A stretch of 14,487 nt of DNA from an uncultured Oscillospiraceae bacterium (GTDB lineage: Bacteria; Bacillota; Clostridia; Oscillospirales; Oscillospiraceae). A model generated the notes under the pieces. It did no database searches. It worked only from the letters and a program-made list of their open reading frames with translations, and was not told the DNA's origin. The translations under genes and the position numbers were made by a program. Every line of letters begins with the position of its first letter. Positions within the stretch are counted from its first letter, which is position 1. Of the stretch, positions 960 to 14,487 are shown in pieces. The stretch spans positions 1-14,487 of the forward strand of contig CAYNMN010000049.1 in assembly GCA_964398305.1 (NCBI GenBank), read 5' to 3'.

Positions 960-1591
960 TTTCCGCCCTCCCCGAGCGCGCAGAAGGCCCGCAGGATGCC
1001 GAGCCCCGTCTCGCCGCTCTTTTCGGGGTGGAACTGCGTGCCGAATACGCTGCCGTTCTGCACGACGCCCGTCACGTCCACGCCGTATTCGCTCGTCGCG
1101 GCGATATATCTCGCGTCGCACGCGGCGTAGAACGAGTGGACGTAGTAGACAAAGCCGCCCTGCTTTGTGTTCGCAAGTATCGGGCAATCGCTCCGCGCAA
1201 TGTCGAGACTGTTCCAGCCTATCTGCGGCACCTTGAGAGAGCTGCCGCGCGCCCTGAGCGCGTCGGAGAGCGAAACCACGTCGCCGGGGATGAGCCCGAG
1301 TCCGGCGTGCTCGCCGAACTCCAGCCCGCGCGTGAAAAGGAGCTGCATTCCCAGACAGATGCCGAGGAAGGGCTTGCCGCGCCCCGCCTCCTCGAGCAGC
1401 GTGGGGACAAGTCCCGTCTCGCGCAGCTTGTCGGCCGCGTCGCCGAAGGCGCCCACGCCGGGGAGGATTATCCGCTCCGCGCTTTTGAGCTGCCGCGCGT
1501 CGCTTGTTATCACGCTCTCGGCGCCGATGGCGGCAAGAGAGCAGGAGAGGGAAAAGAGATTTCCGACCCCGTAATCCACTATTGCCGTCAT
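953..1591 (-). CDS. hisH: Imidazole glycerol phosphate synthase glutamine amidotransferase subunit HisH
   Basis: 212 aa beginning MTAIVDYGVGNLFS, with class-I glutamine amidotransferase motifs (LPGVGAFG, GICLGMQLL, HPEKS). It sits between hisB and hisA. Confidence 0.9.
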   Translation of the reverse strand: MTAIVDYGVGNLFSLSCSLAAIGAESVITSDARQLKSAERIILPGVGAFGDAADKLRETGLVPTLLEEAGRGKPFLGICLGMQLLFTRGLEFGEHAGLGLIPGDVVSLSDALRARGSSLKVPQIGWNSLDIARSDCPILANTKQGGFVYYVHSFYAACDARYIAATSEYGVDVTGVVQNGSVFGTQFHPEKSGETGLGILRAFCALGEGGKC

Positions 1592-2181
1592 AGGTCGAGC
1601 AGCCCCTTCGTGGAGGGCGCCTCGCCCGCCGCGCGCGGGTCGGGGGAGCAGGCCTCGTCGAGCGCGTGCGCGAGCGCCTTGAACGCCGCCTCGATGATGT
1701 GATGGCTGTTCACGCCCGCAAGCTGCCGCAGGTGGATGCCTGCGCCGAGCGTGCGCGCGAGCGCCTGCATGAACTCCGCGACGAGCTCCGTGTCAAAGTC
1801 GAATACCCTCTGCGAGGGGGTGGCGATGTCGCTGCCGTACCATGCCCGTCCGCCGATGTCCACGGCGGCGAGGACGAGCGCGTCGTCCATCGGGATGACG
1901 GCGCTGCCGTAGCGCTTCACTCCGAGTCTTTCGCCCAGCGCCTCGCGGAAGGCGCTGCCGAGCGCCATCGCGCAGTCCTCCACCGTGTGGTGATAGCCGG
2001 TCTTTACGTCGCCGGCGCAGCTTATTTCCAGATCGAAGCGTCCGTGGCGGGCGAAGAGCTCGAGCATGTGGTCGAGAAAGCCGCAGCCGGTTTCCACGGT
2101 GTATTTGCCGCTGCCGTCCACATTGAGGGCGACCCTGATATCGGTCTCGTTGGAGCGTCGGGAATATTGCGCTTTTCTCAT
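1588..2181 (-). CDS. hisB: Imidazoleglycerol-phosphate dehydratase HisB
   Basis: The track ORF 1588..2355 carries a spurious Arg-rich extension. The start is taken at the ATG at 2181 (MRKAQYSRRSNETDIRVALNVDGSG...), with GGAGG 6 nt upstream. IGPD motifs are present (GCGFLDHML, HHTVED, HHIIEA). It overlaps the hisC stop by 4 nt. Confidence 0.9.
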   Translation of the reverse strand: MRKAQYSRRSNETDIRVALNVDGSGKYTVETGCGFLDHMLELFARHGRFDLEISCAGDVKTGYHHTVEDCAMALGSAFREALGERLGVKRYGSAVIPMDDALVLAAVDIGGRAWYGSDIATPSQRVFDFDTELVAEFMQALARTLGAGIHLRQLAGVNSHHIIEAAFKALAHALDEACSPDPRAAGEAPSTKGLLDL

Positions 2182-3245
2182 GCTTTCGCCTCCAGTATTT
2201 CTTTTGTGGCGCCGAGGAGGGCGTCCATCTGCCCGTCCGTGCCGACGGTTATGCGCACGCAGTCGATTATCCTGGGCGTGTCCCAGTGCCGGACAAGTAT
2301 GCCGCGCTCCTTTAGCGCGAGGTAATACTCTCCGCCGCCAAGCCCCCTCGGGCACTGGGCGAAGATGAAGTTCGCGCGGCTCTCGGTGGTTTTGAAGCCC
2401 AGAGAGCGCAGAGCCTCGGACGCTCTCTCCCGCGTCGCCGCGATCCTTGCCGAGCAGTCGCGGTAATAGTCCGCGTCGCGCAGGGCCGCCGTGCCGGCGA
2501 GCAGGGTCAGGCGGTTGAGGTTATACGGGTTGAAGCTGAACTTGATCTTGTTTATGTCGGCAATTATCTCCGGCGACGAGAGCGCGTAGCCCAGTCTCGC
2601 CCCCGCGAGGCAGAAGGACTTTGAAAACGTGCCGACGATGAGCAGGTTGTCGTATTTTTTCAGCAGCGGGACACAGCTCGTGCCCCCGAAGGCGCAGTAG
2701 GCCTCGTCCACGATCACGAGCCTGTCGCGGTTTGCGGAGAGCAGGCGCTCGATCTCGGAGAGGGGCAGGCACAGCCCAGTCGGCGCGTTGGGGTTGGCGA
2801 TGATCACCGTGCCGCGCTTGTCGGCGTAATCGTCGACGCTAATGCTCCAGTCGGAGCGCAGCGGCACTATGTCCGCCGCAACGCCGAAGAGCTCGGCATA
2901 GACGGGGTAGAAGCCGTAGCTGAGATCGGGGAACGCCGCGCCGTTCGGACACAGGGCCATGAAGCAGAAGGCGAGCACCTCGTCGCTGCCGTTGCCGGCA
3001 AAGACCTGCGAGCGGTCGAGCGAGAAGTATTCGCTCATCGCGCCGCAGAGGTCGGAGGCGGCGGGGTCGCTGTACAGCCGCAGCCGCTCCACCTCGTCCG
3101 CGTTTATCGCCGCCATGACGCCCCGTGAGGGCGGGTAGGGGTTCTCGTTGGTGTTGAGCTTCACCCAACCGCGCGCGTCCCTGGGCTGTTCGCCGGGGGT
3201 ATAGGCCTCGAGCTCGTTGAGCCGGGGCAGCAGGAAGCGGCTCAT
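2178..3245 (-). CDS. hisC: Histidinol-phosphate aminotransferase HisC
   Basis: 355 aa with KLNTNENPY, GNGSDE and the FSKSFCLAGARLGY PLP-lysine region. It overlaps the hisD stop by 4 nt. Confidence 0.9.
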   Translation of the reverse strand: MSRFLLPRLNELEAYTPGEQPRDARGWVKLNTNENPYPPSRGVMAAINADEVERLRLYSDPAASDLCGAMSEYFSLDRSQVFAGNGSDEVLAFCFMALCPNGAAFPDLSYGFYPVYAELFGVAADIVPLRSDWSISVDDYADKRGTVIIANPNAPTGLCLPLSEIERLLSANRDRLVIVDEAYCAFGGTSCVPLLKKYDNLLIVGTFSKSFCLAGARLGYALSSPEIIADINKIKFSFNPYNLNRLTLLAGTAALRDADYYRDCSARIAATRERASEALRSLGFKTTESRANFIFAQCPRGLGGGEYYLALKERGILVRHWDTPRIIDCVRITVGTDGQMDALLGATKEILEAKA

Positions 3246-4528
3246 TTTATCTCACCGCGGCGCGAGAGCACGCTCCTTGCGTGACCCTCGAGCCCCTCGC
3301 GGCGGGCAAAGCGGACTATGTCGTCCGCCACGCTCGCGAGCGCTCCGGAGGAATAATATATGTAGCTTGAGCGCTTCACGAAATCGTCCACGCCGAGCGG
3401 CGATGAGAAGCGCGCCGTGCCGCCGGTGGGGAGAGTGTGGTTCGTGCCGGCGAAGTAGTCGCCGAGCGCCTCGGGGGCGCTGCGGCCGAGGAATATGCTG
3501 CCGGCGTTCACGACCTCGGGGAGATATTCAAAGGGCTCGTCCACGCAGAGCTCAAGGTGCTCCGGCGCGATGGCGTTGGAGATAGCCACGGCCTCGTGAA
3601 TGTCGCCCGTGACAATTATCCTGCCATAGTCGCGGAAGGCGGCGGTCGCAATCTCGCGTCTCGGAAGTATGGCGAGCTGGCGCTCGATCTCGGCGTCCAC
3701 CCTCCGGGCGAACGCGCTGTCGTCGCACACGAGCACGGGCACGGAGCGCTCGCCGTGCTCGGCCTGGGATATGAGGTCGGCGGCGACGCAGCCGGGGTCG
3801 GACTTCGCGTCGGCTATCACGAGGATCTCGCTCGGCCCGGCGATCATGTCGATGTCGACGGCGCCGAACACCTGCTTCTTCGCCACCGCGACGAAGATGT
3901 TGCCGGGGCCGACGATCTTATCGACGCCATTTACGCTCTCGGTGCCGTAGGCGAGGGCGCCTATCGCCTGCGCCCCGCCCATCTTATAGATGGTGTCTAT
4001 GCCGGCGACATGGGCGGCGGCAAGTATCTCGGGGCGGGCCCTGCCGTCCCTTCCGGGCGGCGTCGCCATCACAACGTCCGGCACGCCCGCGAGCTTCGCG
4101 GGGACGGCGTTCATCAGCAGGCTGCTGGGGTAGGCCGCGGTGCCGCCGGGGATATAGAGCCCCACGCGCGCGAGCGGCGTTATCTTCTGGCCGAGCACCA
4201 TGCCCTCCGCGCGGGTGTATTCAAAGCCCTCGCGCAGCTGGCGGCGGTGGAAGTCCTCTATGTTGTCCCTCGCTCTTTTGAGCGTGTCCATAAACTCCGT
4301 CGGCTCGCTCGCCACGGCCTCCGCTATCTCCTCCGCGGAGACAGACAGGGAGTCGGGGCGCGCGCCGTCAAAGCGCTCGGTATAGCGCGCCACGGCCTCG
4401 TCGCCGTTCTCGCGCACATCCGCGAGTATGGCGGCCACCGCCTTTTCCACCTTTTCGTCTGTCTGCTCCGCCGCGCGGGAAAAGAGCTTCACGGCGTCTG
4501 TGCCTCTCGCCTCGATAATCTGTGTCAT
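3242..4528 (-). CDS. hisD: Histidinol dehydrogenase HisD
   Basis: 428 aa with GPGNIFVAVAKK, AGPSEILVIAD, SQAEHG and NHTLPTGG motifs typical of HisD. It overlaps the hisZG stop by 4 nt. Confidence 0.9.
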   Translation of the reverse strand: MTQIIEARGTDAVKLFSRAAEQTDEKVEKAVAAILADVRENGDEAVARYTERFDGARPDSLSVSAEEIAEAVASEPTEFMDTLKRARDNIEDFHRRQLREGFEYTRAEGMVLGQKITPLARVGLYIPGGTAAYPSSLLMNAVPAKLAGVPDVVMATPPGRDGRARPEILAAAHVAGIDTIYKMGGAQAIGALAYGTESVNGVDKIVGPGNIFVAVAKKQVFGAVDIDMIAGPSEILVIADAKSDPGCVAADLISQAEHGERSVPVLVCDDSAFARRVDAEIERQLAILPRREIATAAFRDYGRIIVTGDIHEAVAISNAIAPEHLELCVDEPFEYLPEVVNAGSIFLGRSAPEALGDYFAGTNHTLPTGGTARFSSPLGVDDFVKRSSYIYYSSGALASVADDIVRFARREGLEGHARSVLSRRGEIK

Positions 4529-6084
4529 TTTCCTGCCTCCAGACGGGCGCGGATGTCCTCTATCCTCGCCGCTTTGAATTTACTGCTCGCCTTGTTGGCG
4601 ATGAGCCGCGCCGACACCGGCGCTATCTCCTCGAGCACGCACAGGTCGTTTTCCCGCAGCGTGCCGCCCGTTTCAACAATGTCCACGATGACGTCGGACA
4701 GGCCGATCACCGGCGCGATCTCAATGCTGCCGCTTAGACGGATGATGTCCGCAAGGCGGCTCTTGCTCTCAAGCCAGCGCGAGGCGGTGTTGGAGTATTT
4801 CGTCGCCACGCGCAGCGGCGCGTCGGGGTCGGGGCGGAGATCCGCCTTGCCGGCGCAGACCATGCGGCACTTGCCGATGCCGAGATCGAGCAGCTCATAG
4901 ACCTCCGGGCTGTGCTCGCGCAGCACGTCGCTGCCGGCGACGCCTATGTCCGCCGCGCCGCGCTCTACATATACCGGCACATCCGAGGGCTTGACGAGCA
5001 GATAACGCAGCTTCTTTCCCGGACAGTCGAACACGAGCGAGCGCGAGTTCTCCGTCAGCGCGGGACATTCGAAGCCGAGCCCGGCAAAAAGTCCGTAGGC
5101 CGCGCTGCCGAGACGCCCCTTCGGGAGCGCCACAGTGAGCATATCGTCGCCGCCGGAGGCCGCCTCGTTCCCCGTGAGTCCGCTCAGATATGCCGCAAAG
5201 CCGATAGCCGGCTGCGAGCGGCCCATGCGCCGCATGAGCCCGTCGTAGCGTCCGCCGGAGAGCACCGCGCTGGGCGCGGAGTCTATGTAGCCGTTGAAGA
5301 TCACGCCGTTGTAGTAGTCGAGCACGCCGCCCACCGAGAGGTCGAGCCGCAGATGCGAGTCCGCCTCGCCGCCGCCTATGGCCGCGTAAAGCGCTTCGAG
5401 CTCGCCTACGGCCGCGCGCAGCTCGTCCGTGCAGGCGAGCCTTCCCGCGGCGGCGAGAGTTTCGGGGAAGGGGCCGGAGAGTCGGCACAGCTCCATGAGA
5501 GCGTCGGCCTTTTCCCCGGCGATCTCCGCAAGCTCCGAGGGGCTCTTGCGCGAGAGCGCGTCGAGCGCCGCGCCGGCCGCCGCGTCGTCAAGCCCGACGT
5601 CACGCATCCACGCGGCGGCAAAGCCGACGTGCCCTACGTCCAGCAGGTAGTCGCCGCCCATCTCCGCAAGGCTCCGCAGAGCAAGGCGCAGCACCTCGGC
5701 CTCCCCCGCGCCGTCCTCGCCGCCGATATACTCCAGCCCCGCCTGGCGGATCTCGCGCAGCTCGCCGCTGCCCGGCTCCGTGCGGAACACATTTTCGCAG
5801 TAATAGAGCCGCCGAGCTCCGCCGCCGGGGGGAGTGTTCTTTATTATGCTCAGCGTGACGTCGGGCTTTAGCGCCATCAGCCGCCCGCGCGGGTCGGTGA
5901 AGGTAACTATGCCGTCGCTCTTCAGAAAGCTCCTGTTGCCGTAGTAGGTGTCGTAGGGCTCAAACCGGTCGCTGCTGTACTTTTCGTAGCCCGCCTTGGA
6001 ATAGAGCCTTCTCAGCCGGAGCGTCAGCCGCTCCGCGCCCGAGAGAAATCCGAGATCGTCCATTTGCTTCTCCGTTTTCTTCAT
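4525..6084 (-). CDS. hisZ-hisG: ATP phosphoribosyltransferase regulatory subunit HisZ (res. 1-314) in one continuous frame with short-form ATP phosphoribosyltransferase HisG (res. 315-519); apparent HisZ-HisG fusion
   Basis: Residues 1-314 look like a HisRS paralogue (GRLYYCENVFRTEPGSGELREIRQAGLEYIGG motif-2-like, GGRYDGLM motif-3-like). Residues 315-519 start MLTVALPKGRL at the internal ATG (plus-strand cat 5140-5142) and are short-form HisG (~205 aa). Reading across 5143-5165 shows no stop codon between the two parts (..EAASGGDDMLTVAL..). A likely alternative hisZ start is the ATG at 6063 (MDDLGF...), which has ACGGAG 8 nt upstream. Confidence 0.8.
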   Translation of the reverse strand: MKKTEKQMDDLGFLSGAERLTLRLRRLYSKAGYEKYSSDRFEPYDTYYGNRSFLKSDGIVTFTDPRGRLMALKPDVTLSIIKNTPPGGGARRLYYCENVFRTEPGSGELREIRQAGLEYIGGEDGAGEAEVLRLALRSLAEMGGDYLLDVGHVGFAAAWMRDVGLDDAAAGAALDALSRKSPSELAEIAGEKADALMELCRLSGPFPETLAAAGRLACTDELRAAVGELEALYAAIGGGEADSHLRLDLSVGGVLDYYNGVIFNGYIDSAPSAVLSGGRYDGLMRRMGRSQPAIGFAAYLSGLTGNEAASGGDDMLTVALPKGRLGSAAYGLFAGLGFECPALTENSRSLVFDCPGKKLRYLLVKPSDVPVYVERGAADIGVAGSDVLREHSPEVYELLDLGIGKCRMVCAGKADLRPDPDAPLRVATKYSNTASRWLESKSRLADIIRLSGSIEIAPVIGLSDVIVDIVETGGTLRENDLCVLEEIAPVSARLIANKASSKFKAARIEDIRARLEAGK

Positions 6085-6183
6085 TATGATAACTAATTAG
6101 CATATTATCACATTACCCTATTAAAGTAAAGTGGGAGAAACGTAAAAATTCCGGCTCACGGGCGCGGCCGTTTGTGGATAATA
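6085..6183 (-). promoter_or_regulatory. AT-rich intergenic region upstream of the his operon; presumed his promoter, with a possible spoVAC terminator hairpin at ~6146-6165 followed by a U-run
   Basis: A 99-bp AT-rich island (ttattatgataactaattagcatattatcacattaccctattaaag) in otherwise GC-rich DNA, directly upstream of the hisZ start. On the minus strand, cggccgcgcccgugagccgg followed by aauuuuua sits just after the spoVAC stop. No sigma motifs were rigorously assigned. Confidence 0.3.
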
Positions 6184-6627
6184 CTATATTAGGCTCAAAA
6201 CGTACAGCACCAGCCCGTAAACAACACTCGCGCCTACGCCGTAGACGATCACGGGCCCGGCGATTACGAACATCTTCGCGGCCGTGCCGGTTATGAGCCC
6301 CTCCGTCTTGAACTCAAGGGCGGGGGAAACGACGGCGTTGGCGAAGCCGGTTATCGGCACGAGCGTACCGGCTCCGGCGAACTTCGCCGCGTCGTCATAT
6401 ACGCCCAGCCCCGTGAGCAGCGCGCCGAGGAAGATGAGCGACATCGAAGCCGCCGCGCCCGCATCCTTTTCGGAAAGGCCGAGCGCCGCGCCGCCCGACA
6501 GCAGCGCCTGCCCGGCGCAGCAGATGAGCCCGCCCACGAGAAAGGCGCGCAGCATATCGCCCCATATCGGGGAGGGCGGGGATCTTTCCGCGACGTATTT
6601 TGCGTATTGCTCCCTGGTCATTTTCAT
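6184..6627 (-). CDS. spoVAC: Stage V sporulation protein AC-like membrane protein (SpoVAC/SpoVAEB family)
   Basis: 147 aa. The N-terminus MKMTREQYAKYVAERSPPSP....LRAFLVGGLICCAGQAL matches the SpoVAC signature (..KAFLVGGLIC.IGQ). The remainder is Gly/Ala-rich and hydrophobic, consistent with a channel-like membrane protein. No spoVAD or spoVAE follows it. Confidence 0.6.
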   Translation of the reverse strand: MKMTREQYAKYVAERSPPSPIWGDMLRAFLVGGLICCAGQALLSGGAALGLSEKDAGAAASMSLIFLGALLTGLGVYDDAAKFAGAGTLVPITGFANAVVSPALEFKTEGLITGTAAKMFVIAGPVIVYGVGASVVYGLVLYVLSLI

Positions 6628-6679
6628 AAAAAAGCACCTCCGCGGTATTATCTGCGGAGGCGCCGAAAATATTAACTTT

Positions 6680-7090
6680 TCAGTCTATATCGACGGAGAG
6701 ATTGTCGATCCCGTGCTCGTCGAACTCGGCGAGGTATTCGTCCATGCGGTCTGTCAGCTCGGTGAAGTCCTCGGGGTCGGTGTCCTCAAGGTGCATATCG
6801 CGCCGGGCCATCTCCTCGGCGAGAATATCAAAGAATACGGCGTCCTCATAGTCGGCGATTGCGTCGTGTATTCCGCCCTCCTCATATTCCTTGGAGGGAA
6901 AGACGTGGCCGTACCAGCTTTGGTAGAGCTTGCTCAAGCCGTTTTTGGAGCAGAGGGCAAAAAGCTTTTCCTGCAGCTCGTCATAATCCGCAAAGCGATC
7001 CTCGCCCCTTGTAGAGTTGAGCACCCAGTTGCCTATATAGACCATGTCCAGCAGCCTGCGAAATTCCTTGTTGGTAAGCTCGATATTCAT
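6680..7090 (-). CDS. Hypothetical acidic protein (136 aa)
   Basis: The track ORF 6680..7102 starts at a GTG that overlaps the GGAGG. The ATG at 7090 (MNIELTNKEFRRLLDMVYIGNW...) with GGAGG 11 nt upstream is preferred. The C-terminus is highly acidic (EDTDPEDFTELTDRMDEYLAEFDEHGIDNLSVDID). No recognisable domain. Confidence 0.5.
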   Translation of the reverse strand: MNIELTNKEFRRLLDMVYIGNWVLNSTRGEDRFADYDELQEKLFALCSKNGLSKLYQSWYGHVFPSKEYEEGGIHDAIADYEDAVFFDILAEEMARRDMHLEDTDPEDFTELTDRMDEYLAEFDEHGIDNLSVDID

Positions 7091-7415
7091 ATCCCGGCAC
7101 ACCTCCTCGCGTCCGTATCGGGGGATACTGATTGATATGCTGTATTATAGCACGACCACACAAAAATTCTACACAAAAATTACAAGGAATCATCAGACGG
7201 TGTTGGCTTATTATACAATCGGCGTCCCGCCCGAAATGCCCAGATACCGCCGCGGCGCGGCGCACAAAAAAAGTGGTGTTAATCAGACGGCAAGGAAAGA
7301 CAATGACTGACGGAGATAATATACTGGACTACAAATAGTGTTAACCAGACGACAACAGCTGTTTTGGAATGGGGGGATAAGTTTGGTTGTTTTGCAGGGG
7401 GAGGAAAAGCGCGCA

Positions 7416-7520
7416 ATGTGCGGCGAGCTTGCGCGGCATCTGCCGAAGCTGCGGGAGATCATGAAGCTCTCGCAGGGGGAGCTTGCGGAGCTCTGCGGTA
7501 TTTCGCGCACGAGGATATGA
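7416..7520 (+). pseudogene. Truncated XRE-type helix-turn-helix gene fragment (34 codons)
   Basis: MCGELARHLPKLREIMKLSQGELAELCGISRTRI* contains the helix2-turn-helix3 pattern (LSQGELAELCGISRTRI) of XRE/Cro-C1 HTH domains but stops within the domain. It lies in a lower-GC decayed stretch. Confidence 0.35.
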
Positions 7521-7545
7521 CACGGACATCTTCACTGAACCAACA

Positions 7546-7938
7546 ATGAAGGGCAAACTTGGCGTAAATGCCATGAAAGCAGATCATCACCTATACGACC
7601 ATATTCTGTATGATTCCACCAACGAGCGGGATTTTGCAACAGAGCTTGATACGCGAACCGAGGTGGCAGTCTATGTAAAACTGCCGAACGGATTCTATAT
7701 CTCCACACCGGTTGGTAAATACAATCCTGACTGGGCAATTGCGTTCAAAGAAGGCAGTGTCAAGCATATCTATTTTGTCGCAGAGACAAAAGGCTCTATG
7801 AATTCTATGCAGCTTCGTATGGTTGAGGAGGCAAAAATACACTGTGCCAGGGAGCACTTCAAAGCCATTAGCTCTGACAGCATAGTGTATGATGTGGTGG
7901 ATAGTTACGAGAGTTTGTTGAACAGGGTTATGAGATAA
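7546..7938 (+). CDS. PD-(D/E)xK nuclease-domain fragment resembling the C-terminal endonuclease module of restriction-enzyme Res subunits; probable gene remnant
   Basis: The ~130-aa ORF starting MKGKLGVNAMKADHHLYDHILYD contains ...YNPDWAIAF...HIYFVAETKGS..., a classical PD...(D/E)xK arrangement. It is too short for a complete restriction enzyme, abuts the truncated HTH fragment, and sits in DNA with GC well below the window average. Confidence 0.4.
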   Translation: MKGKLGVNAMKADHHLYDHILYDSTNERDFATELDTRTEVAVYVKLPNGFYISTPVGKYNPDWAIAFKEGSVKHIYFVAETKGSMNSMQLRMVEEAKIHCAREHFKAISSDSIVYDVVDSYESLLNRVMR

Positions 7939-8193
7939 GCGAATTGCAGAAAAAGGGACATGCCGTCATTGTTCAAAGGCTGCAAATTGATTTAAAAACC
8001 CATGATGGATAATGTGACACATTCGCGGTCTGAACGGAGCGGAGCTTGTAGACCTGATCCTGAAGAATTGCGAAAGACTGAGTGAAAAGTATCAGAGGCT
8101 GATACCGCTGAAGATGGTATATATTCCTGCGGCTCCGGACCGGGCATAGAGCCCGCGGGCATTTAATTCCGCATATAAGTAGGACGACACACC

Positions 8194-9183
8194 ATGCCGC
8201 TGCATTTTATACAATCGGATATCGTTGACGTCAGTGCCGACGCGATCGTGAGCTGCGGGAACAGCGCCATGACCGACGAGGGCGGGGTGAGCGGCTGCAT
8301 ATACCGGGCCGCGGGCAGCGCCGTTGCGGACGAGTGCGCGAGGATCGGCGGCTGTGCCCCGGGCGACGCGGTGGCGACCTCCGCCGGAGAGCTCAAGGCA
8401 AGGTATATCATCCACACCGTTGGCCCGATCTGGGACGGCGGGCGCTCAGGCGAGGAGTTCGTCCTGCGTCAGTGCTATAAGCGCGTCCTCGCCAAGGCCG
8501 CGGAGCTCGGCTGTGCCTCCGTCGCCATGCCGCTCATCGCCTCCGGGCGGTACGGGTATCCCCGGGAGCTCGCAAAGCGCGTCGCCTCCGAGGAGATCAG
8601 CGCGTTCCTCGAAGCTCACGGCGACATGGAGATCACGATGGTGCTGAGCGGCGAGGCCGGGCATATCAGCCGCGTGAGGGCGTCCAACGCCGACCTGTCC
8701 ACGTTCATCGCGAGAAACTTTATAGAGCCCGCGAGTGCCGACGAGCATGAGCCGTACTACGACCGGGACAGGACACGGTTCAGCATCTCGCCGCCGGGCG
8801 CCGGGCTCTACAAGACGCTCGACGAGATGCTCGCCGCGCGCAGTAAGCCGTTCAGGGATATGCTCCGCGATCTCATGACCGAGGCGCAGGTGTCGGACGC
8901 CGAGCTGTACAACAAGGCGGGCGTCTCGCGCCAGACCTTCAACAAGATATGGAACCAGGCCGGCTACAAGCCGAGCAAGAACACCGCCCTGTCGCTTGCC
9001 ATCGGTTTGGAGCTCAACTACGACCAGACGCTCGACCTGCTCGGCACGCTGGGCTACACGCTCTCGCACAGCGTGCAGTTCGACATGATCGTGGAGTACT
9101 TCATAAGGCGCGGCTGCTACGATCTCTTCGACATCAACTATTCCCTCGACGATTACGGCGAGCCGCCGCTCGGCCTTGTATGA
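8194..9183 (+). CDS. Macro domain (MacroD/YmdB-type ADP-ribose binding/hydrolase) fused to a C-terminal XRE-family HTH DNA-binding domain
   Basis: The N-terminus carries SCGNSAMTDEGGVSGCIYRAAG (cf. MacroD N.AN..L.GGGV.GAIHRAAG), YIIHTVGPIWDGG and ASVAMPLIASGRYGYP (cf. SIAFPAISTGVYGYP). The C-terminus carries LRDLMTEAQVSDAELYNKAGVSRQTFNKIWN followed by KPSKNTALSLAIGLELNYDQTLDLLGTLGY, the five-helix XRE pattern. A rho-independent terminator follows the gene. Confidence 0.75.
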   Translation: MPLHFIQSDIVDVSADAIVSCGNSAMTDEGGVSGCIYRAAGSAVADECARIGGCAPGDAVATSAGELKARYIIHTVGPIWDGGRSGEEFVLRQCYKRVLAKAAELGCASVAMPLIASGRYGYPRELAKRVASEEISAFLEAHGDMEITMVLSGEAGHISRVRASNADLSTFIARNFIEPASADEHEPYYDRDRTRFSISPPGAGLYKTLDEMLAARSKPFRDMLRDLMTEAQVSDAELYNKAGVSRQTFNKIWNQAGYKPSKNTALSLAIGLELNYDQTLDLLGTLGYTLSHSVQFDMIVEYFIRRGCYDLFDINYSLDDYGEPPLGLV

Positions 9184-9218
9184 GGCTCTCCGCCCGCGCG
9201 TAAAATATAATAATGTAT

Positions 9219-9253
9219 CCCTCGATCGGTCAAACGGTCGGGGGATGTTTTTT
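9219..9253 (+). terminator. Rho-independent terminator of the macro-HTH gene
   Basis: ccctcgatcg-gtcaaa-cggtcggggg forms a 10-bp stem (two G-U pairs) with a 6-nt loop, followed by atg and tttttt (9248-9253). It sits 36 nt after the stop and directly abuts operator copy 1. Confidence 0.45.
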
Positions 9254-9270
9254 GTCAATCGCGGATTGAC
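9254..9270. promoter_or_regulatory. Dyad operator copy 1, GTCAATC-gcg-GATTGAC (7-3-7 inverted repeat), in the promoter region of the vWA gene
   Basis: Perfect 7-bp inverted arms with a 3-bp spacer. The right arm contains a -35-like TTGACC (9266-9271). A -10-like TATCCT lies 20 bp downstream. The vWA start codon is 83 nt downstream. Confidence 0.5.
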
Positions 9271-9352
9271 CACGGTGTGCAGGGAGTGAAGTATCCTATG
9301 ATCACAGCGGTAGAGCGCAGCTCCCGCAGCAATAAAAACGGAGGATGCTATT

Positions 9353-9994
9353 ATGAACGAAAACCTGACAGAGCTTGTGTTCATACTCGACCGCAGCGGA
9401 TCTATGTGCGGCATGGAGGAGGACACCATCGGCGGCTTCAACTCGATGCTCGACAAGCAGAAGAAGGAGCCGGGCGACGCGCTGGTCACCACGGTGCTCT
9501 TCGACAACGAGTACGAGACCCTGCACGACAGAGCGCCGCTGCAGTGCGTGAGAGCGATGACGGCGAACGACTACTCGGCGCGGGGCAGCACGGCGCTGCT
9601 CGACGCGGTCGGCAGAGCGATCTCCCTCATCCGGATCGCCCAGAAGCACACGCCGGAGGCCGAGCGCCCCGGCAAGACGGTCGTGGTCATCATCACGGAC
9701 GGCTATGAGAATTCGAGCCGCGAGTACAGCATCGAGCAGGTGCGCGAAATGATCTCAAAGCAGACCGGGTTGGGCTGGGAGTTCCTGTTCCTCGGCGCGA
9801 ACATGGACGCCGTGCAGGCCGCCGGCAGGATGAACATCCGCGCCGACAGAGCCGCGACCTACCGGCCCGACGGCGCCGGCACCCGCGCCAACTACGACGC
9901 CGTGGACATGGCCATCCGCTACTCCCGAGCCGGACGCCACTTCTCCGACGAGTGGAGGGCGCCGGTCGACGAGCGCAACAACAGGGACTATTAA
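9353..9994 (+). CDS. Small von Willebrand factor A (vWA) domain protein (213 aa)
   Basis: LVFILDRSGSM (MIDAS D-x-S-x-S), GSTALLDAVGRAI and VVVIITDGYEN motifs. GGAGGA lies 7 nt upstream of the ATG. Confidence 0.8.
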   Translation: MNENLTELVFILDRSGSMCGMEEDTIGGFNSMLDKQKKEPGDALVTTVLFDNEYETLHDRAPLQCVRAMTANDYSARGSTALLDAVGRAISLIRIAQKHTPEAERPGKTVVVIITDGYENSSREYSIEQVREMISKQTGLGWEFLFLGANMDAVQAAGRMNIRADRAATYRPDGAGTRANYDAVDMAIRYSRAGRHFSDEWRAPVDERNNRDY

Positions 9995-10000
9995 AACTCG

Positions 10001-10203
10001 GCGCCCGTTTGAGCTCAAGCAGCGCGAGCTCTGCGCCCTTAGGTTCCCTCGCGTATTCCCTGAACATAGTGAAGGGAATACGCTGAGGGACCTTAGGAGG
10101 CGGTGACGTATCGGCAAACACGGCGCCGGGAACATTCACCGAGCTTTGCACGTCGGTAGTATCCCGCCTGAGCTCAAGAAAAAAGTGTCAATCGCGGATT
10201 GAC
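10001..10203 (+). repeat. Structured intergenic repeat copy 1: long imperfect hairpin (10037-10097), AGGAGG, ~90 nt conserved tail, and dyad operator copy 2
   Basis: Begins 7 nt after the vWA stop. The hairpin is cccttaggttccctcgcgtattccct / loop gaacatagtga / agggaatacgctgagggaccttagg (~23 bp with two single-nucleotide bulges and a T-T mismatch). AGGAGG follows the 3' arm directly. It is ~90% identical to copy 2. A 10-bp direct repeat tgagctcaag occurs at 10009-10018 and 10169-10178. Confidence 0.7.
10187..10203. promoter_or_regulatory. Dyad operator copy 2, GTCAATC-gcg-GATTGAC, upstream of the 62-aa ORF
   Basis: Identical 17-mer. TTGACC is at 10199-10204 and a -10-like TACATT lies 20 bp downstream. 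The ORF start is at 10280. Confidence 0.5.
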
Positions 10204-10279
10204 CCGGGCGAGGGACGGATTTGGTACATTATGAATAGAAGCTGCAAAAACGACGGCTCGAAAGAAAGGGAGGACTGCT

Positions 10280-10468
10280 ATGGATGCTTACGGGAAAACG
10301 AAATTCAACACCTGCCTTGACGAATTCGAAAGAACACTGACCGACCTGCGCAGGTGCGGGTCGCTCACAGAGAAGGATCTCCGCATACTCTGCCGCCGGG
10401 TTGAGGAGATGCGCCGGGCCGGCAACGACAGCCCGGACATGACAGGTCGGAGCCGGCTGCGCCCGTGA
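10280..10468 (+). CDS. Small hypothetical protein (62 aa), predicted helical and charged
   Basis: Strong RBS AAAGGGAGG 7 nt upstream of the ATG. MDAYGKTKFNTCLDEFERTLTDLRRCGSLTEKDLRILCRRVEEMRRAGNDSPDMTGRSRLRP. It lies between the two repeat copies, and its stop codon overlaps the start of repeat copy 2. Confidence 0.5.
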   Translation: MDAYGKTKFNTCLDEFERTLTDLRRCGSLTEKDLRILCRRVEEMRRAGNDSPDMTGRSRLRP

Positions 10469-10648
10469 GCCTGCGCCCTTAGGTCCCCTCGCGTATTCCC
10501 TGAACATAGTGAAGGGAATACGCCGAGGGACCTTAGGAGGCGGTGCCGTGCCGACAAACAAGGCGCCGGGAACATTTACCGACCTCTGCACGTCGGTAGT
10601 ATTCCGTCCGCGATCCGAAACAAGAAAAAGTGTCAATCGCGGATTGAC
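10459..10648 (+). repeat. Structured intergenic repeat copy 2: hairpin 10477-10537, AGGAGG, conserved tail, and dyad operator copy 3
   Basis: Aligns to copy 1 with ~11 substitutions and two small indels over ~175 bp. The bulged base in the hairpin changes in both arms (t to c on the left, t to c on the right) but the predicted structure is preserved. Confidence 0.7.
10632..10648. promoter_or_regulatory. Dyad operator copy 3, GTCAATC-gcg-GATTGAC, at the head of a ~430-nt leader preceding the SPFH gene
   Basis: Identical 17-mer. TTGACC is at 10644-10649 and a -10-like TATGAT (5/6 to TATAAT) lies 20 bp downstream. The next plus-strand gene starts at 11115. Confidence 0.45.
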
Positions 10649-11114
10649 CATGACCGTAAACGGATACGGTATGATACGTTTATAAGGTGAGCTACGCGAA
10701 TCTTAGAAACAGAAGATGAGCTATTGCGAACCTTTTTAGCTGAGGCCAAGTAGCCGGTCCGTGGCGTCGATGAGTCGCCGGACCGCGTCGCCGGGAGCCA
10801 TAAACTCCGGCGTGCAGGCCAAGGCCAGGCAACCGGTAGGGTAGATGAAGTTTCCCGAGGCCGCATAAAGTCCGCCCGGACGCGTAAGACCCCTTGTCCG
10901 GAACGTGAAGTGAGCCTGCTGAGGACGGATACCGTCGGACAGTCCGAAAAGCCGGGACACAGTCCCCGCCGGAGGGTCAGCCGACTCAATTCCTTCGCCG
11001 CTCATCAGCGTGGACGCGGCCGACAAATAATCTCCGCTTGACGGCGCTCCGGCCGACAGCGGTACATATAGACCGACGACATTCGCTGCGGATAATGAAA
11101 GGAGTGCTGCACAC

Positions 11115-12215
11115 ATGACAATTACAATTAAAGACGGAGAGCGCGGGGTGTTGACGAGGGACGGGTGCTTCCTCAAACTACTCACACCCGGAAGACACAG
11201 CGGCGACGACGACTGCGAGGTCGAGGTCGTCAAAGCCACCCCCGGAGAGAGATACAACTCTCTCCACCCTGTCGAGCCGCTGCTCGGCGACCCCGAAGCC
11301 TCGAAACAACTGACGACCGTGGATGTGGCGCCCAACGAACTCGTGTTCGTGTCACACTACGGAGCCGCCAGACTCGCCCTCTCCACCGGGCACTATGTGC
11401 TCTGGACACTGGGCCGCGACCTGGATGTCGAACGCGTCGACATCACCGACCCCCTCGTGGACGAGGAGACGCTTTTGCGCCTCACCCCCGCCCTCGCGAA
11501 AAGCCTACTCAACTGGGAAAGCGTCGCCGAATACGAACAGGGACTGCTGTTCGTGAACGGCGTACTCGCAAAAACCCTCGACCCGGGGCGCTACGCCCTG
11601 TGGGCCAACTCCCTCGCCGACTACGAAGTCAAAACCGTCGACCTGCGCCTTCAGCAACTCGACGTGAGCGGCCAGGAGCTCCTGACCGCCGACAAGGTCA
11701 CGGTCCGCCTGAATGTCGTCTGCACATTCAAAGTGACCGACACCCTCCGCGCCGCGACCGGGTTCTCCAACCACGCGGAGCAACTGCGCACACTTGTCCA
11801 ACTCGCACTGAGACGCGCCGTGTGCGCTCTCACACTCGACGAGCTCCTTGCGAGCCGTGAGGATGTCGCCGAGGGCATCCTCTACGAACTAAAGACCCGT
11901 GAAGCCGAATACGCCGTGACATTCACGGACTCGGGAGTGAAGGACGTAATCCTTCCCGGCGAAATAAGGGACATAATGAACTCGGTCCTACTCGCCGAAA
12001 AACGCGCACAGGCAAACGTAATCGTCCGCCGAGACGAGGCCGCTTCCATGCGGAACAAACTCAATTCAGCGCGATTACTCGAAGAAAACCCGACACTAAT
12101 GCGCCTGACCGAACTGGAGTCCATTGAGAGAATCTGCGAGCACGTGGGGTCCCTCAGCGTGGGCGGTAGCGAAAACCTATTGGGCGAGCTTGCGAAGCTC
12201 GCGGGCAAGAGCTGA
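11115..12215 (+). CDS. SPFH/band-7 (stomatin/prohibitin/flotillin-like) domain protein, with no N-terminal transmembrane helix
   Basis: The core reads VDLRLQQLDVSGQELLTADKVTVRLNVVCTFKVTD...EQLRTLVQLALRRAVCALTLDELLASREDV...VKDVILPGEIRDIMNSVLLAEKRAQANVIVRRDEAASMRNKLNSARLLEENPTLMRLTELESIERI. Two N-terminal SPFH-start-like motifs are seen (DGERGVLTRDG..LLTPGRH and EQGLLFVNGVLAKTLDPGRYAL). AAAGGAG lies 10 nt upstream. No hydrophobic segment is present. Confidence 0.75.
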   Translation: MTITIKDGERGVLTRDGCFLKLLTPGRHSGDDDCEVEVVKATPGERYNSLHPVEPLLGDPEASKQLTTVDVAPNELVFVSHYGAARLALSTGHYVLWTLGRDLDVERVDITDPLVDEETLLRLTPALAKSLLNWESVAEYEQGLLFVNGVLAKTLDPGRYALWANSLADYEVKTVDLRLQQLDVSGQELLTADKVTVRLNVVCTFKVTDTLRAATGFSNHAEQLRTLVQLALRRAVCALTLDELLASREDVAEGILYELKTREAEYAVTFTDSGVKDVILPGEIRDIMNSVLLAEKRAQANVIVRRDEAASMRNKLNSARLLEENPTLMRLTELESIERICEHVGSLSVGGSENLLGELAKLAGKS

Positions 12216-12275
12216 CGCTCTGCCCGGAGTTCGGGGGCGAACACCTCGCCCCCCGGAAATCGCACACATTTGTCC

Positions 12276-12305
12276 TTGACACACGAATTGTTCACACCGC
12301 ATAAT
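12276..12305 (+). promoter_or_regulatory. Sigma-A-like promoter for the ARH operon
   Basis: TTGACA (12276-12281), an 18-bp spacer, then CATAAT (12300-12305). GGGAGG is at 12313-12318 and the ATG at 12328. No copy of the GTCAATC dyad is present. Confidence 0.4.
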
Positions 12306-12327
12306 GGATAAAAGGGAGGCTGTGCAT

Positions 12328-13113
12328 ATGAAAGGCGCAATACTCGGAGACATAGTCGGCTCAGTCTATGAGCGACACAACACAAAGAGCAAGGCGTTTC
12401 CTCTGTTCTCGCCCGTGGGTCGCTTCACGGACGACACGGTGCTGACGTGCGCCGTGGCGAAGGCGTTAATGAGCGACGACGCCGACGTCGACCTTCTCGA
12501 AGAGCTGACCTACCGGCTGCAGCAGTTCGGGCTGCTCTACCCGCACGCGGGGTACGGCGGAGCCTTCAAGCGGTGGTTCCGCTCCGACTACCCGCAGCCG
12601 TACAACTCCTGGGGCAACGGCGCGCCTATGCGCTGCTCGCCGGCCGGCTTCGTTGCCGGCAGCGCGGAGAAGGCCTACGCGCTCGGCGAGGCCACGGCGG
12701 AGCCCACACACAACCACCCGGAGGGGCTTAAGGCCGCGGGGCTCACGGCGGAGCTCGTCTGGCGAGCCCGCCACGGCGAGAGCCGGGAGACTCTGCGCGA
12801 GAGGGCGTTTGAGCTCTATGAGCTGCCCGCGCTCGACGAGGTGCGCCCGACCTACCGCTTCCACGTCTCCAGTCAGGAGACAATGCCCGTCGCCCTCGCC
12901 GCGTTCTTCGAGAGCACGGACTTTGAGGACGCAATACGCAACGCGATCTCCGTCGGCGGAGACAGCGACACCATCGGCGCCATCACCGGCGCAATAGCCG
13001 AGGCGTACTACGGCGTGCCGGACGAGCTCTGGCGGAAGGCGACACTCTACCTCGACGACTACCTGCTGAAAATCGTTACCGAGTTCTATGCCTTCGCCGA
13101 GGCGCGGAGCTGA
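12328..13113 (+). CDS. ADP-ribosylglycohydrolase family protein (ARH/DraG-like), paralogue 1
   Basis: The start is taken at MKGAILGDIVGS (the track ORF begins 24 nt earlier, but GGGAGG sits 8 nt before this ATG and paralogue 2 starts at the same motif). ARH family motifs are present: FTDDTVLTCAVAKAL, GNGAPMRCSPAGF, THNHPEG and GGDSDTIGAITGAIAEAYYG. Confidence 0.8.
   Translation: MKGAILGDIVGSVYERHNTKSKAFPLFSPVGRFTDDTVLTCAVAKALMSDDADVDLLEELTYRLQQFGLLYPHAGYGGAFKRWFRSDYPQPYNSWGNGAPMRCSPAGFVAGSAEKAYALGEATAEPTHNHPEGLKAAGLTAELVWRARHGESRETLRERAFELYELPALDEVRPTYRFHVSSQETMPVALAAFFESTDFEDAIRNAISVGGDSDTIGAITGAIAEAYYGVPDELWRKATLYLDDYLLKIVTEFYAFAEARS
12653..13033 (+). repeat. 381-bp tract 100% identical to 13479-13859 (internal part of ARH paralogue 1); near-identity extends back to 12591
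   Basis: Direct base-by-base comparison at an offset of 826 bp. The tract 12591-13033 versus 13417-13859 shows only 3 mismatches, all within the first 62 bp. The flanking coding sequence on both sides is strongly diverged. Confidence 0.9.
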
Positions 13114-13150
13114 ACGGGTTCATTCAAACCGGACTATAAGGAGGGCAAAA

Positions 13151-13939
13151 ATGAAGGGTGCAATAATAGGCGACATCGTGGGCTCGATCTACGAGTTCGA
13201 CAATCTGCGTCAGAAGGACTTCCCGTTCTTCGGGAAGAAGTGCAAGTTCACCGACGACAGCGTGATGACCTGCGCTGTGGCCGAGGCGCTCATGAACGCA
13301 GACAGGACCGACGGCGACCTTTTCGAGGGGCTTGTTGAGAGCATGCAGGAGCTCGGCAACGCTTATCCGTACCGCGGGTATGGGCTGCGCTTCGGCGACT
13401 GGCTGGACTCCGACGACCCGCAGCCGTACAACTCCTGGGGCAACGGCGCGCCTATGCGCTGCTCACCGGCCGGGTTCATTGCCGGCAGCGCGGAGAAGGC
13501 CTACGCGCTCGGCGAGGCCACGGCGGAGCCCACACACAACCACCCGGAGGGGCTTAAGGCCGCGGGGCTCACGGCGGAGCTCGTCTGGCGAGCCCGCCAC
13601 GGCGAGAGCCGGGAGACTCTGCGCGAGAGGGCGTTTGAGCTCTATGAGCTGCCCGCGCTCGACGAGGTGCGCCCGACCTACCGCTTCCACGTCTCCAGTC
13701 AGGAGACAATGCCCGTCGCCCTCGCCGCGTTCTTCGAGAGCACGGACTTTGAGGACGCAATACGCAACGCGATCTCCGTCGGCGGAGACAGCGACACCAT
13801 CGGCGCCATCACCGGCGCAATAGCCGAGGCGTACTACGGCGTGCCGGACGAGCTCTGGCAGGAGGCGGCGCTCTACCTCGACGCCCGCCTGCTGAAAATA
13901 GTCAGCGACTTCTACGCCTTCGCCGAGACGAAGGCGTAA
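13151..13939 (+). CDS. ADP-ribosylglycohydrolase family protein (ARH/DraG-like), paralogue 2
   Basis: The start is taken at MKGAIIGDIVGS, with AAGGAGG 6 nt upstream. The N-terminal ~95 aa are about 50% identical to paralogue 1, the middle ~145 aa are identical, and the last ~25 aa diverge again. It lies 37 nt after paralogue 1. Confidence 0.8.
   Translation: MKGAIIGDIVGSIYEFDNLRQKDFPFFGKKCKFTDDSVMTCAVAEALMNADRTDGDLFEGLVESMQELGNAYPYRGYGLRFGDWLDSDDPQPYNSWGNGAPMRCSPAGFIAGSAEKAYALGEATAEPTHNHPEGLKAAGLTAELVWRARHGESRETLRERAFELYELPALDEVRPTYRFHVSSQETMPVALAAFFESTDFEDAIRNAISVGGDSDTIGAITGAIAEAYYGVPDELWQEAALYLDARLLKIVSDFYAFAETKA
13479..13859 (+). repeat. 381-bp tract 100% identical to 12653-13033 (internal part of ARH paralogue 2)
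   Basis: See the paired feature. The identical tracts also generate identical spurious antisense ORFs in the six-frame track (12743..12934 and 13569..13760). Confidence 0.9.
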
Positions 13940-13957
13940 GACAACAAAGGAGGCATT

Positions 13958-14347
13958 ATGGATCGGGATTCGTGTGCCATAGCAAAACAACGCTACATAG
14001 ACTTTTCGACTGAAGAGAATCGGAGGCTGTTTTTCGAAACGATCCGTTTGTGCGCGGAAGACAGGACCTGGATCCACTCCCGTGGGAGAGATGATTCCGG
14101 CCGGACTGCGTTGTGTGTTGTGATTACTGATGAAGGCGTGTTCGGAGCGCTTTTTACCTCTATCGAGAATGCGGTAAGGATACCAAGGCAGGTTCAGGAG
14201 CAGTATCCGGCTGTCATATGCTCGCCCATAAACCATGTGATAGACGCGGTAATGGAATATGGTCTTAAGGGGATTGTCTTTGACCCATACAGCGCGCAGC
14301 CTATCTTCATTGAAAGAAATAATTTGAAAGCAATACTCCAATACTAA
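13958..14347 (+). CDS. Hypothetical protein (129 aa), lower GC than its neighbours; a faint resemblance to small SseB/YbjN-like or immunity-type proteins is not demonstrable here
   Basis: AAAGGAGG 5 nt upstream of the ATG and only 18 nt after the ARH-2 stop, so it is likely co-transcribed. The sequence MDRDSCAIAKQRYIDFSTEENRRLFFETIRLCAEDRTW...GIVFDPYSAQPIFIE has mixed composition. GC is about 48% against about 66% for the ARH genes. Confidence 0.55.
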   Translation: MDRDSCAIAKQRYIDFSTEENRRLFFETIRLCAEDRTWIHSRGRDDSGRTALCVVITDEGVFGALFTSIENAVRIPRQVQEQYPAVICSPINHVIDAVMEYGLKGIVFDPYSAQPIFIERNNLKAILQY

Positions 14348-14487
14348 ACGTATTCCGGGTCAGCGAGGATTGTTTAGGGAAAACAAATCAGAGAGGAAGA
14401 GTGATAATTGGATAACGTTACAACATTGACCACAGCACTGATCGACAAGCTCAACGAGGATGTAAGAAACGGGCTTTACGAGCACGG

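Follow-up and report, generated by a model that had tools for sequence, protein, structure and literature searches.

A conserved cassette of a macro-HTH regulator, a palindrome and a vWA gene, with a putative ADP-ribose logic, in a mosaic gene module of an uncultured Oscillospiraceae bacterium

To our knowledge, the responses of bacteria to ADP-ribosylation that is imposed on them from outside, by Alt/Mod-type phage enzymes or by ADP-ribosyltransferase (ART) toxins, are almost without experimental data, and a prediction from 2022 is the sole framework for them. In that study, Iyer, Burroughs, Anantharaman and Aravind (2022, Viruses 14:1977; PMC9503650, section 3.8) predicted computationally a set of ARG-centric counter-ADP-ribosylation systems, in which ARG is accompanied by a transcription factor that joins Nudix or WYL to an HTH, by a phosphatase and by vWA/SseB/TY chaperones, in some cases also by Macro or NADAR. 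The Nudix/WYL-HTH factor is found in ~42% of these systems and a coupled phosphatase (rhodanese-phosphatase, calcineurin-like, HD or HAD) in ~55%, the hosts are actinobacteria, planctomycetes and proteobacteria, and repression was proposed as the mode of control (PMC9503650). Here, we analysed a stretch of 14,487 nucleotides from an uncultured Oscillospiraceae bacterium (assembly GCA_964398305.1, contig CAYNMN010000049.1, positions 1 to 14,487; "the window" hereafter) that carries, on its plus strand, genes for a macro domain joined to an XRE-type HTH domain (macro-HTH), a vWA protein, a 62-amino-acid open reading frame (ORF), an SPFH protein, two ADP-ribosylglycohydrolases (ARH) and an SseB-like protein. 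Comparison with other genomes showed that these seven genes are not one conserved unit, and that their conserved core consists of the macro-HTH gene, a 17-bp palindrome and the vWA gene.

All seven genes, which a preliminary description of this DNA had proposed as a single ADP-ribose-centred module, were found again at 8194-14347, and the domain calls held, those of macro, vWA, SPFH and two ARH in Pfam profile searches and that of the HTH through its modelled fold. To see which of them travel together, we used an alignment of full-length macro-HTH proteins to search a set of genomes in which each GTDB species is represented once. The census yielded 70 full-length macro-HTH loci, mostly from Clostridia and Bacilli with a few from Synergistaceae, Chloroflexi and Coriobacteriaceae bins, and neighbours were counted in the 61 loci with at least 1.5 kb of downstream sequence. 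A vWA homologue (45-57% identity) was encoded in 48 of these 61 loci, within 300 nt in 37, and an ARH in 8 of the 61 species-representative loci, while none of the 61 encoded a relative of the SPFH protein, of the 62-amino-acid ORF or of the SseB-like protein of the window. A viral-contig collection provided 43 further full-length macro-HTH loci, 36 of them with a vWA gene and 14 with an ARH gene. ARH joins the cassette in ~13-30% of loci. De novo clustering of the neighbours revealed no third conserved partner beyond vWA and ARH. The co-conservation that the preliminary description envisaged is thus partial: macro-HTH, vWA, ARH and SseB are linked by co-occurrence, by a shared operator and by gene fusions, and the SPFH gene and the 62-amino-acid ORF are not. 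Among occasional neighbours of the cassette, the recurrence of an ArsC/Spx-like gene is limited to a few related genomes, and Tag glycosylase and EEP nuclease genes were also seen. Among macro-HTH clades without vWA, the closest (P0003; locus L087, 5830-8641) has HD_4, FGase and PHP-phosphatase genes transcribed divergently from the regulator. In the window's own species, too, a member of the FGase family with 43% identity is encoded downstream of the module (L001, 16368-17171), and it may be a further variable output.

The macro-HTH regulator (8194..9183, plus strand; 329 amino acids; Pfam Macro, E 1.7e-33) consists of a MacroD/YmdB-type macro domain (residues 1-150), a disordered linker (~154-203) and an XRE-type HTH with a helical extension (209-329), and the AlphaFold2 model of the full-length protein has a pLDDT of 85. 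By NCBIfam, its macro domain is nearest to the YmdB/MacroD O-acetyl-ADP-ribose deacetylases, and the top Foldseek matches are YmdB and MacroD2 (36-38% identity; target-normalised TM-score ~0.86 for YmdB). The loops that bind ADP-ribose in MacroD-type domains are kept (N23, G31-V32-x-G34 and G118...G121-Y-P). For the HTH, the Pfam match (HTH_26, Cro/C1) is sub-threshold, at 17.9 against a cut-off of 22, and a PDB sequence-profile search with this domain returned only a weak match to CylR2 and spurious ones. The C-terminal 118 residues were modelled as an XRE-type HTH plus helical extension with a pLDDT of 93, and their structural matches are DdrO, CapH-N, 434 Cro, SinR and C-proteins (probability 0.9-1.0, target-normalised TM-score 0.7-0.78). 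An exact look-up of the protein found no record, and the HTH family comprises 8052 representatives at 50% clustering. We also considered whether other sensor domains are carried by the same HTH and rejected this idea, as the non-macro N-termini with Pfam domains are all single occurrences and probably assembly chimaeras. The macro-HTH transcript ends at an intrinsic-terminator-like hairpin (9215..9248, plus strand) with a 14-pair stem and a TTTTT tail.

The second conserved gene encodes a single-domain cytoplasmic vWA protein of 213 amino acids (9353..9994, plus strand; Pfam VWA_CoxE, 26.5 bits), in which the metal-ion-dependent adhesion site (MIDAS) is intact, D13/S15/S17/T80/D116 being invariant in 45 homologues. 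A PDB sequence-profile search with this protein gave no match. It belongs to phrog_7371 (E 3.5e-56), a family spread over 217 GenBank phage records (Streptomyces, Microbacterium and Pseudomonas phages and jumbo phages; e.g. ON260820.1 and MH576965.1) and also present in 568 IMG/VR stretches. RlaP or NADAR genes are found close to a few of the phage homologues, and in one case an annotated ADP-ribosyltransferase gene is 3.6 kb away. One vWA gene from a metagenome-assembled genome (L020, 6107-6757) has an in-frame stop at codon 8, which could mean that the gene is a pseudogene, that translation restarts downstream or that the sequence contains an error.

The third element of the core is the palindrome GTCGC-N7-GCGAC, which occupies the spacer between the macro-HTH and vWA genes in 41 of 44 genome loci. 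A strict search for this motif returned 48 matches in 995 kb of macro-HTH loci: 39 lie directly downstream of the macro-HTH gene, in the usual vWA slot, and seven of the other nine could be assigned a position directly before a displaced vWA gene. A control set of SPFH loci (881 kb) contained a single match, adjoining the only vWA gene of that set, and the palindrome is found almost exclusively upstream of vWA or ARH/ARH-SseB genes. When the 46 distinct sites were aligned, counting from the end of the palindrome, a C stood at +1, T-A-n-n-n-T was invariant at +22 to +27 and Y/R was invariant at +33/+34. These fixed positions thus point to a -10 box and a start site at a set distance from the palindrome, whose centre would fall at about -42. 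These promoters have no -35 hexamer save the right half-site of the palindrome.

Several observations suggest that macro-HTH is the protein that reads this site. A scan that started from vWA was examined in its 80 best-matching IMG/VR loci. A GTC-N11-GAC site is present within 200 nt upstream of the vWA gene in each of the 48 with a macro-HTH match (a few of them partial or HTH-only), whereas 28 of the 32 loci without macro-HTH also lack the site; for three of the four exceptions, the expected regulator position is beyond the fetched sequence. The putative recognition helix also varies with the half-site. In ~60 loci, helices of the form x-D-(R/K)-(K/R)-x-F-S-K-I pair with GTCG-type half-sites, nearly always GTCGC, with L070 (GTCCCT) as the sole exception, and x-D-(R/K)-(K/R) helices are never paired with GTCAA. 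At least one GTCAA half-site is found in six x-S-(R/K)-Q lineages, namely the window, L090, L053, L252/L254, the L278 group and L290, while L087, with an x-S-R-Q helix and no vWA, has a weak site only. In the window itself, the half-site is GTCAAT instead of GTCGC, and the recognition helix has changed along with it. Altogether, joint presence and absence, covariation of helix and half-site, and the modelled structure make macro-HTH the likely binder of the palindrome. We also considered that the palindrome might be a terminator of the macro-HTH gene and discarded this explanation, because it is kept with vWA when the two genes are apart and because a T-run is usually missing behind it.

The same operator and -10 spacing also stands before ARH, ARH-SseB and ARH-SseB-Macro genes in L045, L056, L060 and L073, so that ARH and SseB appear to be direct members of the regulon in other species. 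As for the boundary between the regulator and its operator, inserts of 2.4-4.7 kb with Y-family polymerase (ImpB/UmuC-type), YolD-like and sometimes YjbR-family genes separate macro-HTH from operator-vWA on several gut contigs of the viral collection (L184, 6987-11637; L195, 7044-10532; also L189, L190, L194-L198 and L219), and the operator remains with vWA. Four other contigs of that collection (L173, L175, L183 and L186) end a few bases from the macro-HTH stop codon, which suggests either an assembly break or a variable junction at this boundary.

In the window, the palindrome is present as three exact copies of GTCAATCGCGGATTGAC, at 9254, 10187 and 10632 (plus strand), and the three sites match the operator-promoter geometry of the family exactly. 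Operator-promoter 1 (9254..9297) precedes vWA and consists of the palindrome (9254-9270), a C, 20 nt and the -10 box TATCCT (9292-9297), with a predicted start at ~9304. Operators 2 and 3 are contained in a duplicated unit of ~215 nt that opens with a 25-bp-stem hairpin. Copy A (10031..10244) comprises the hairpin (10037-10097), a spacer, operator 2 (10187-10203) and the -10 box TACATT (10225-10230), and precedes the 62-amino-acid ORF; copy B (10471..10689) comprises the hairpin (10477-10537), a spacer, operator 3 (10632-10648) and the -10 box TATGAT (10670-10675), with a predicted start at ~10682. Among the 326 fetched loci, this repeat unit is confined to the window's species. Its hairpins have no T-run, and each stands directly past a stop codon (that of vWA or of the 62-amino-acid ORF), ~90 nt before the operator. 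The repeated operator and the repeat elements that had been noticed beforehand were therefore both confirmed, the palindrome behaving as a real operator, and the arrangement suggests that the window is an example of regulon growth through operator-promoter duplication. The 62-amino-acid ORF itself (10280..10468, plus strand) has a strong ribosome-binding site (GGGAGG), a GC content at third codon positions (GC3) of 0.75 and no family match; no relative was found in any other fetched locus, and it is lineage-specific.

The two ARH genes are arranged differently. ARH1 (12328..13113, plus strand; Pfam ADP_ribosyl_GH, E 1.2e-37; metal-binding motifs GDxxG, TDDT and GGDSDT) is followed by its tandem paralogue ARH2 (13151..13939, plus strand; E ~1e-37). 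The ORFs were listed as 12304-13113 and 13088-13939, and ribosome-binding sites, of which that before ARH1 is strong, together with homologous N-termini make 12328 and 13151 the most likely starts. Upstream of ARH1 lies a sigma-A/sigma-70-like promoter (12276..12305, plus strand; TTGACA-18-CATAAT; 11 of 12 consensus matches), in a region where six consensus-like sigma-A sites were counted against 1.7 expected from shuffles. The central ~400 nt of ARH1 and ARH2 are 95-100% identical within each strain, while between strains this stretch is only 83-93% identical in 60-nt blocks, both copies being alike (window compared with L001, 13798-15409), which argues for ongoing gene conversion. Both proteins score far under the equivalog cut-offs of DraG (TIGR02662; 62-64 against 337 bits) and of Tri1 (NF041672; 36-46 against 490 bits). 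The SseB-like gene that follows (13958..14347, plus strand; 129 amino acids; Pfam SseB, 21.8 bits against a cut-off of 21) is the gene of different composition that had been pointed out beforehand, with a GC content of 0.48 and a GC3 of 0.53 compared to 0.75-0.92 for the GC3 of its neighbours. A k-mer-based protein database search with it found its own identical sequence only. In other genomes, an ARH-SseB-Macro fusion (L056) or an ARH-SseB fusion (L060) is encoded beside macro-HTH; these fusions tie ARH, SseB and Macro together, and the SseB-like protein is a candidate chaperone partner of ARH.

Considering these data, we propose that the module is built around a conserved macro-HTH switch/operator/vWA cassette with an ADP-ribose logic, to which each lineage adds genes of its own, and we estimate the probability of this reading at roughly 60%. 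The macro-HTH protein would be a one-component switch that binds the 17-bp palindrome through its XRE-type HTH, probably as a dimer, ~42 bp upstream of the transcription start. Its macro domain, being MacroD-like with the ADP-ribose-binding loops intact, would probably sense ADP-ribose, O-acetyl-ADP-ribose, ADP-ribose-1''-phosphate or an ADP-ribosylated macromolecule, and thereby switch DNA binding. Activation is favoured over repression by occlusion, by analogy with known promoters, because the site is at -42, no -35 hexamer is present and the -10 boxes are weak. The conserved output would be the vWA/MIDAS protein, joined in many genomes by ARH or ARH-SseB on the same operator-promoter or the same transcript; vWA and SseB might bind ADP-ribosylated targets, from which ARH, and perhaps the macro domain itself, would remove the modification. 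Since no transferase is linked to the cassette, the modification would come from an outside source, for example a phage or a toxin. The cassette may have a role in defence or counter-defence. In this species, the operator-promoter has been triplicated before vWA, the 62-amino-acid ORF and, past a 430-nt leader, the SPFH gene, with ARH-ARH-SseB behind a promoter of their own.

A number of points weigh against this proposal. What we say of DNA binding, of the ligand and of activation or repression is inferred, and no copy of the palindrome stands upstream of the macro-HTH gene itself. The catalytic Asp of MacroD is replaced by Ser in the window protein and by Cys in many relatives. Moreover, 94 of the 150 top cluster representatives of the HTH domain have no match to the macro profile; the 16 of these 94 that were examined have kept a degenerate piece of the macro domain (hhalign probability 95%), with the first strand and the last helix-strand retained and the ADP-ribose-binding loops lost (P0266, P0289, P0330, P0340 and others), so that ADP-ribose sensing is not universal in this family. 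Close vWA homologues are also common in true phages lacking both the regulator and the operator, so that vWA could act in a way unrelated to ADP-ribose. A canonical promoter of their own precedes the ARH genes in this genome. As to defence, the neighbourhood gives little: the 117 ORFs that immediately flank the cassettes spread over 148 Pfam families, none seen more than twice, and are mostly ordinary genes. A defence-island enrichment near the cassette was rejected because its flanks vary too much, with no more than scattered McrBC, AbiEii-like and type I restriction-modification genes. PADLOC 2.0 returned no match for the seven module proteins, its sole match being a type III restriction enzyme fragment upstream, and the defence-system scan proposed in the preliminary description thus came back empty for the module.

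A bolder form of the proposal, which we regard as tentative, is that macro-HTH is the first macrodomain-based one-component transcription factor, a class-II-type activator that would sense ADP-ribose signals or ADP-ribosylated targets and induce a phage-related vWA effector together with ARH-SseB erasers, so that the cassette would be a widespread and self-contained immunity or repair module of Bacillota against phage or toxin ARTs. The same tentative form, taken as a whole, holds that operator specificity re-evolved from GTCGC to GTCAA and that the regulon grows through duplication of promoter cassettes.

The SPFH gene is the member of the module that fits least well with its neighbours. It encodes a slipin-type protein of 366 amino acids (11115..12215, plus strand; Pfam Band_7, E 4.8e-27) with no predicted membrane segment. 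We collected 80 metagenomic loci anchored on SPFH homologues (L091-L170), in which the recurring neighbours are WYL and WCX regulators, RtcB and RlaP, i.e. an RNA-repair operon: RtcB is encoded downstream in 44 of the 80, with the two regulators upstream in ~40, while macro-HTH/vWA is found within 10 kb in a single locus and ARH beside the SPFH homologue in none of the 80. The window protein is a full-length member of the slipin family of these WYL-WCX-slipin-RtcB-RlaP operons (40-51% identity). In the window, however, its gene is without these operon partners and stands behind an operator of the macro-HTH type. We conclude from these sequence comparisons that it is a lineage-specific recruit. 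Between operator-promoter 3 and the SPFH gene extends a non-coding leader of ~430 nt (10690..11114, plus strand) in which no reading frame has a raised GC3 and no remnant of the RNA-repair partners was found. A structured RNA was rejected for this stretch (fold z-score -1.4 on the plus strand and 0.0 on the minus strand; no Rfam match), as was a decayed gene (no coding GC3 and no similarity to WYL, WCX or any neighbouring protein); it may be a long 5' untranslated region, a regulatory RNA or decayed DNA. Past the SPFH stop codon, a GC-rich hairpin (12230..12257, plus strand) with only a weak T tail is a possible partial terminator.

With the usual SPFH partners being WYL, WCX, RtcB and RlaP, with the ARH genes behind their own promoter and with no relatives of the 62-amino-acid ORF, the idea of seven genes as one module could not be maintained. 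One may then ask whether the region is simply a mosaic island without a common function, in which a macro-HTH/vWA cassette, an SPFH gene from RNA repair and an independent ARH-ARH-SseB unit happen to adjoin and the ADP-ribose theme is partly a coincidence. That SPFH homologues never stand beside ARH and only once in 80 loci near macro-HTH/vWA, that GC and GC3 are heterogeneous and that the flanks of the cassette vary between genomes all agree with this, as does the ARH promoter. However, an operator-promoter triplicated with exact geometry before vWA, the 62-amino-acid ORF and SPFH speaks against chance adjacency, and elsewhere ARH or ARH-SseB genes are direct operator targets or immediate vWA partners, up to an ARH-SseB-Macro fusion. 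We therefore consider a mosaic without a common function a rather doubtful explanation, though the best of the alternatives.

Another possibility is a response to nucleic-acid damage, in which the macro domain would sense or process ADP-ribose-1''-phosphate or ADP-ribosylated DNA or RNA ends, with outputs that aid repair and not protein de-ADP-ribosylation. The WYL-WCX-RtcB-RlaP context of the SPFH family, the Y-family polymerase and YolD inserts of several gut loci, the Tag glycosylase and EEP nuclease neighbours and the phage vWA homologues near RlaP and NADAR would all suit such a response. Yet each of these neighbours occurs in few loci, probably from related genomes, the window contains no ligase, RtcB or polymerase gene, and characterised ARH enzymes act mainly on protein substrates, which makes a repair response unlikely.

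Housekeeping control of NAD and ADP-ribose metabolism in the manner of NrtR, with a regulator that senses ADP-ribose or O-acetyl-ADP-ribose from sirtuins or NAD turnover, would agree with the YmdB/MacroD type of the macro domain, as these proteins are O-acetyl-ADP-ribose deacetylases, and with the PnuC-type NMN transporter genes that make up 2 of the 117 cassette-flanking ORFs; the conserved target is nonetheless vWA and no NAD enzyme, genes for NAD biosynthesis, salvage and sirtuins are not linked to the cassette, and its distribution is patchy and accessory, so that we hold this to be very improbable. Finally, a DarTG-type toxin-antitoxin pair with macro-HTH as the autoregulating antitoxin hardly deserves consideration. 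A macro domain does serve as the antitoxin of DarTG, and many antitoxins have an XRE HTH. However, the cassette has no adjacent ART gene, whether DarT or another (DarT, DUF4433, is missing from the window and from the 117 flanking ORFs), the protein encoded next to macro-HTH folds as a vWA domain, the macro domain resembles that of MacroD, and the operator is at the promoter of the partner gene and not at that of the macro-HTH gene.

Upstream of the module, a his biosynthesis operon (225-6084, minus strand), including a fused HisZ-like/HisG gene of 512-519 amino acids, is followed by spoVAC/spoVAEB (6184-6627, minus strand), which indicates a spore-forming Bacillota host of ~65% GC. Next comes a low-GC stretch (~6600-8190; 44-53% GC compared to ~65% for the rest of the genome) that encodes the C-terminal endonuclease part of a type III restriction enzyme (7483-7938; Pfam RE_endonuc, E 1.8e-36; PADLOC REase_III), which an earlier insertion probably left behind. 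The module had been placed between the his operon and restriction fragments; this fragment lies in fact upstream of it, between his/spoVAC and the module. GC and GC3 are heterogeneous over the region, and the compositional mosaic expected of an assembled island was thus borne out. At the other end, 61 nt past the SseB-like gene, a further ORF starts (14409-14487, plus strand) and is cut by the contig end; it is 122 amino acids long in L001, has no family match and may belong to the ARH transcription unit. In contigs of the same species (regulator 97% identical), gene order is unchanged, and the module is followed by the 122-amino-acid ORF, the FGase-family gene, a 103-amino-acid ORF and unrelated metabolic genes. 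An Rfam search of the whole window in E-value mode gave a single chance match, outside the region, and a tRNA/tmRNA search of the window gave none. In agreement with the preliminary description, Pfam found no ART or sirtuin domain in the scanned window genes or in 20 kb of same-species contigs; neither a phosphatase nor a Nudix domain was found by Pfam in the window genes.

The macro-HTH/operator/vWA cassette offers a compact and directly testable system, with a regulator carrying a recognisable ligand domain, a 17-bp operator, a fixed promoter geometry and few outputs (vWA, ARH and SseB). It is found in dozens of species, its family provides natural variants of operator and recognition-helix specificity, and it would give a first functional context to phrog_7371.

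Whether the locus is previously undescribed, as first proposed, has a divided answer: the ARG-centric logic was predicted by Iyer et al. in 2022 (PMC9503650), whereas we found no mention of the Macro-XRE regulator, of its operator or of the Bacillota cassette, either there or in the other literature retrieved on Macro-HTH/vWA. With the ARG-centric systems, the window shares an ARH/ARG without a linked ART or sirtuin, a one-component factor with a potential ADP-ribose-binding domain, vWA and SseB proteins predicted to be chaperones, a Macro domain that adds to ADP-ribose processing and a variable, mosaic periphery. It differs from them in that its sensor is a MacroD-type macro domain on an XRE HTH and not Nudix or WYL, in its Bacillota hosts, in having no phosphatase (the related locus L087 has HD_4 and PHP phosphatase genes), in a core made of regulator, operator and vWA rather than of ARG, and in a promoter geometry that suggests activation.

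As the preliminary description had stated, none of the better-known systems fits either, considering the scores below equivalog cut-offs, the missing ART partner and the absence of Nudix. In DarTG, DraT/DraG and Tre1/Tri1, a macro or ARH hydrolase likewise reverses ADP-ribosylation, but each of them encodes its cognate transferase alongside, and the window has none. Compared with E. coli YmdB and human MacroD2, the window macro domain conserves the Asn and the glycine-rich ADP-ribose loops; those are stand-alone enzymes, whereas the window protein joins the domain to a DNA-binding one and has Ser for the catalytic Asp. The proposed site at about -42, overlapping or replacing the -35 element, resembles the dimeric HTH sites of lambda cI at PRM and of class II CRP/FNR promoters, an analogy of geometry only. 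NrtR is likewise a one-component regulator in which an enzyme-derived ADP-ribose-binding domain controls an HTH; it joins Nudix to a winged HTH and acts on NAD metabolism genes, whereas the window regulator joins Macro to an XRE HTH, with vWA and ARH as its putative targets.

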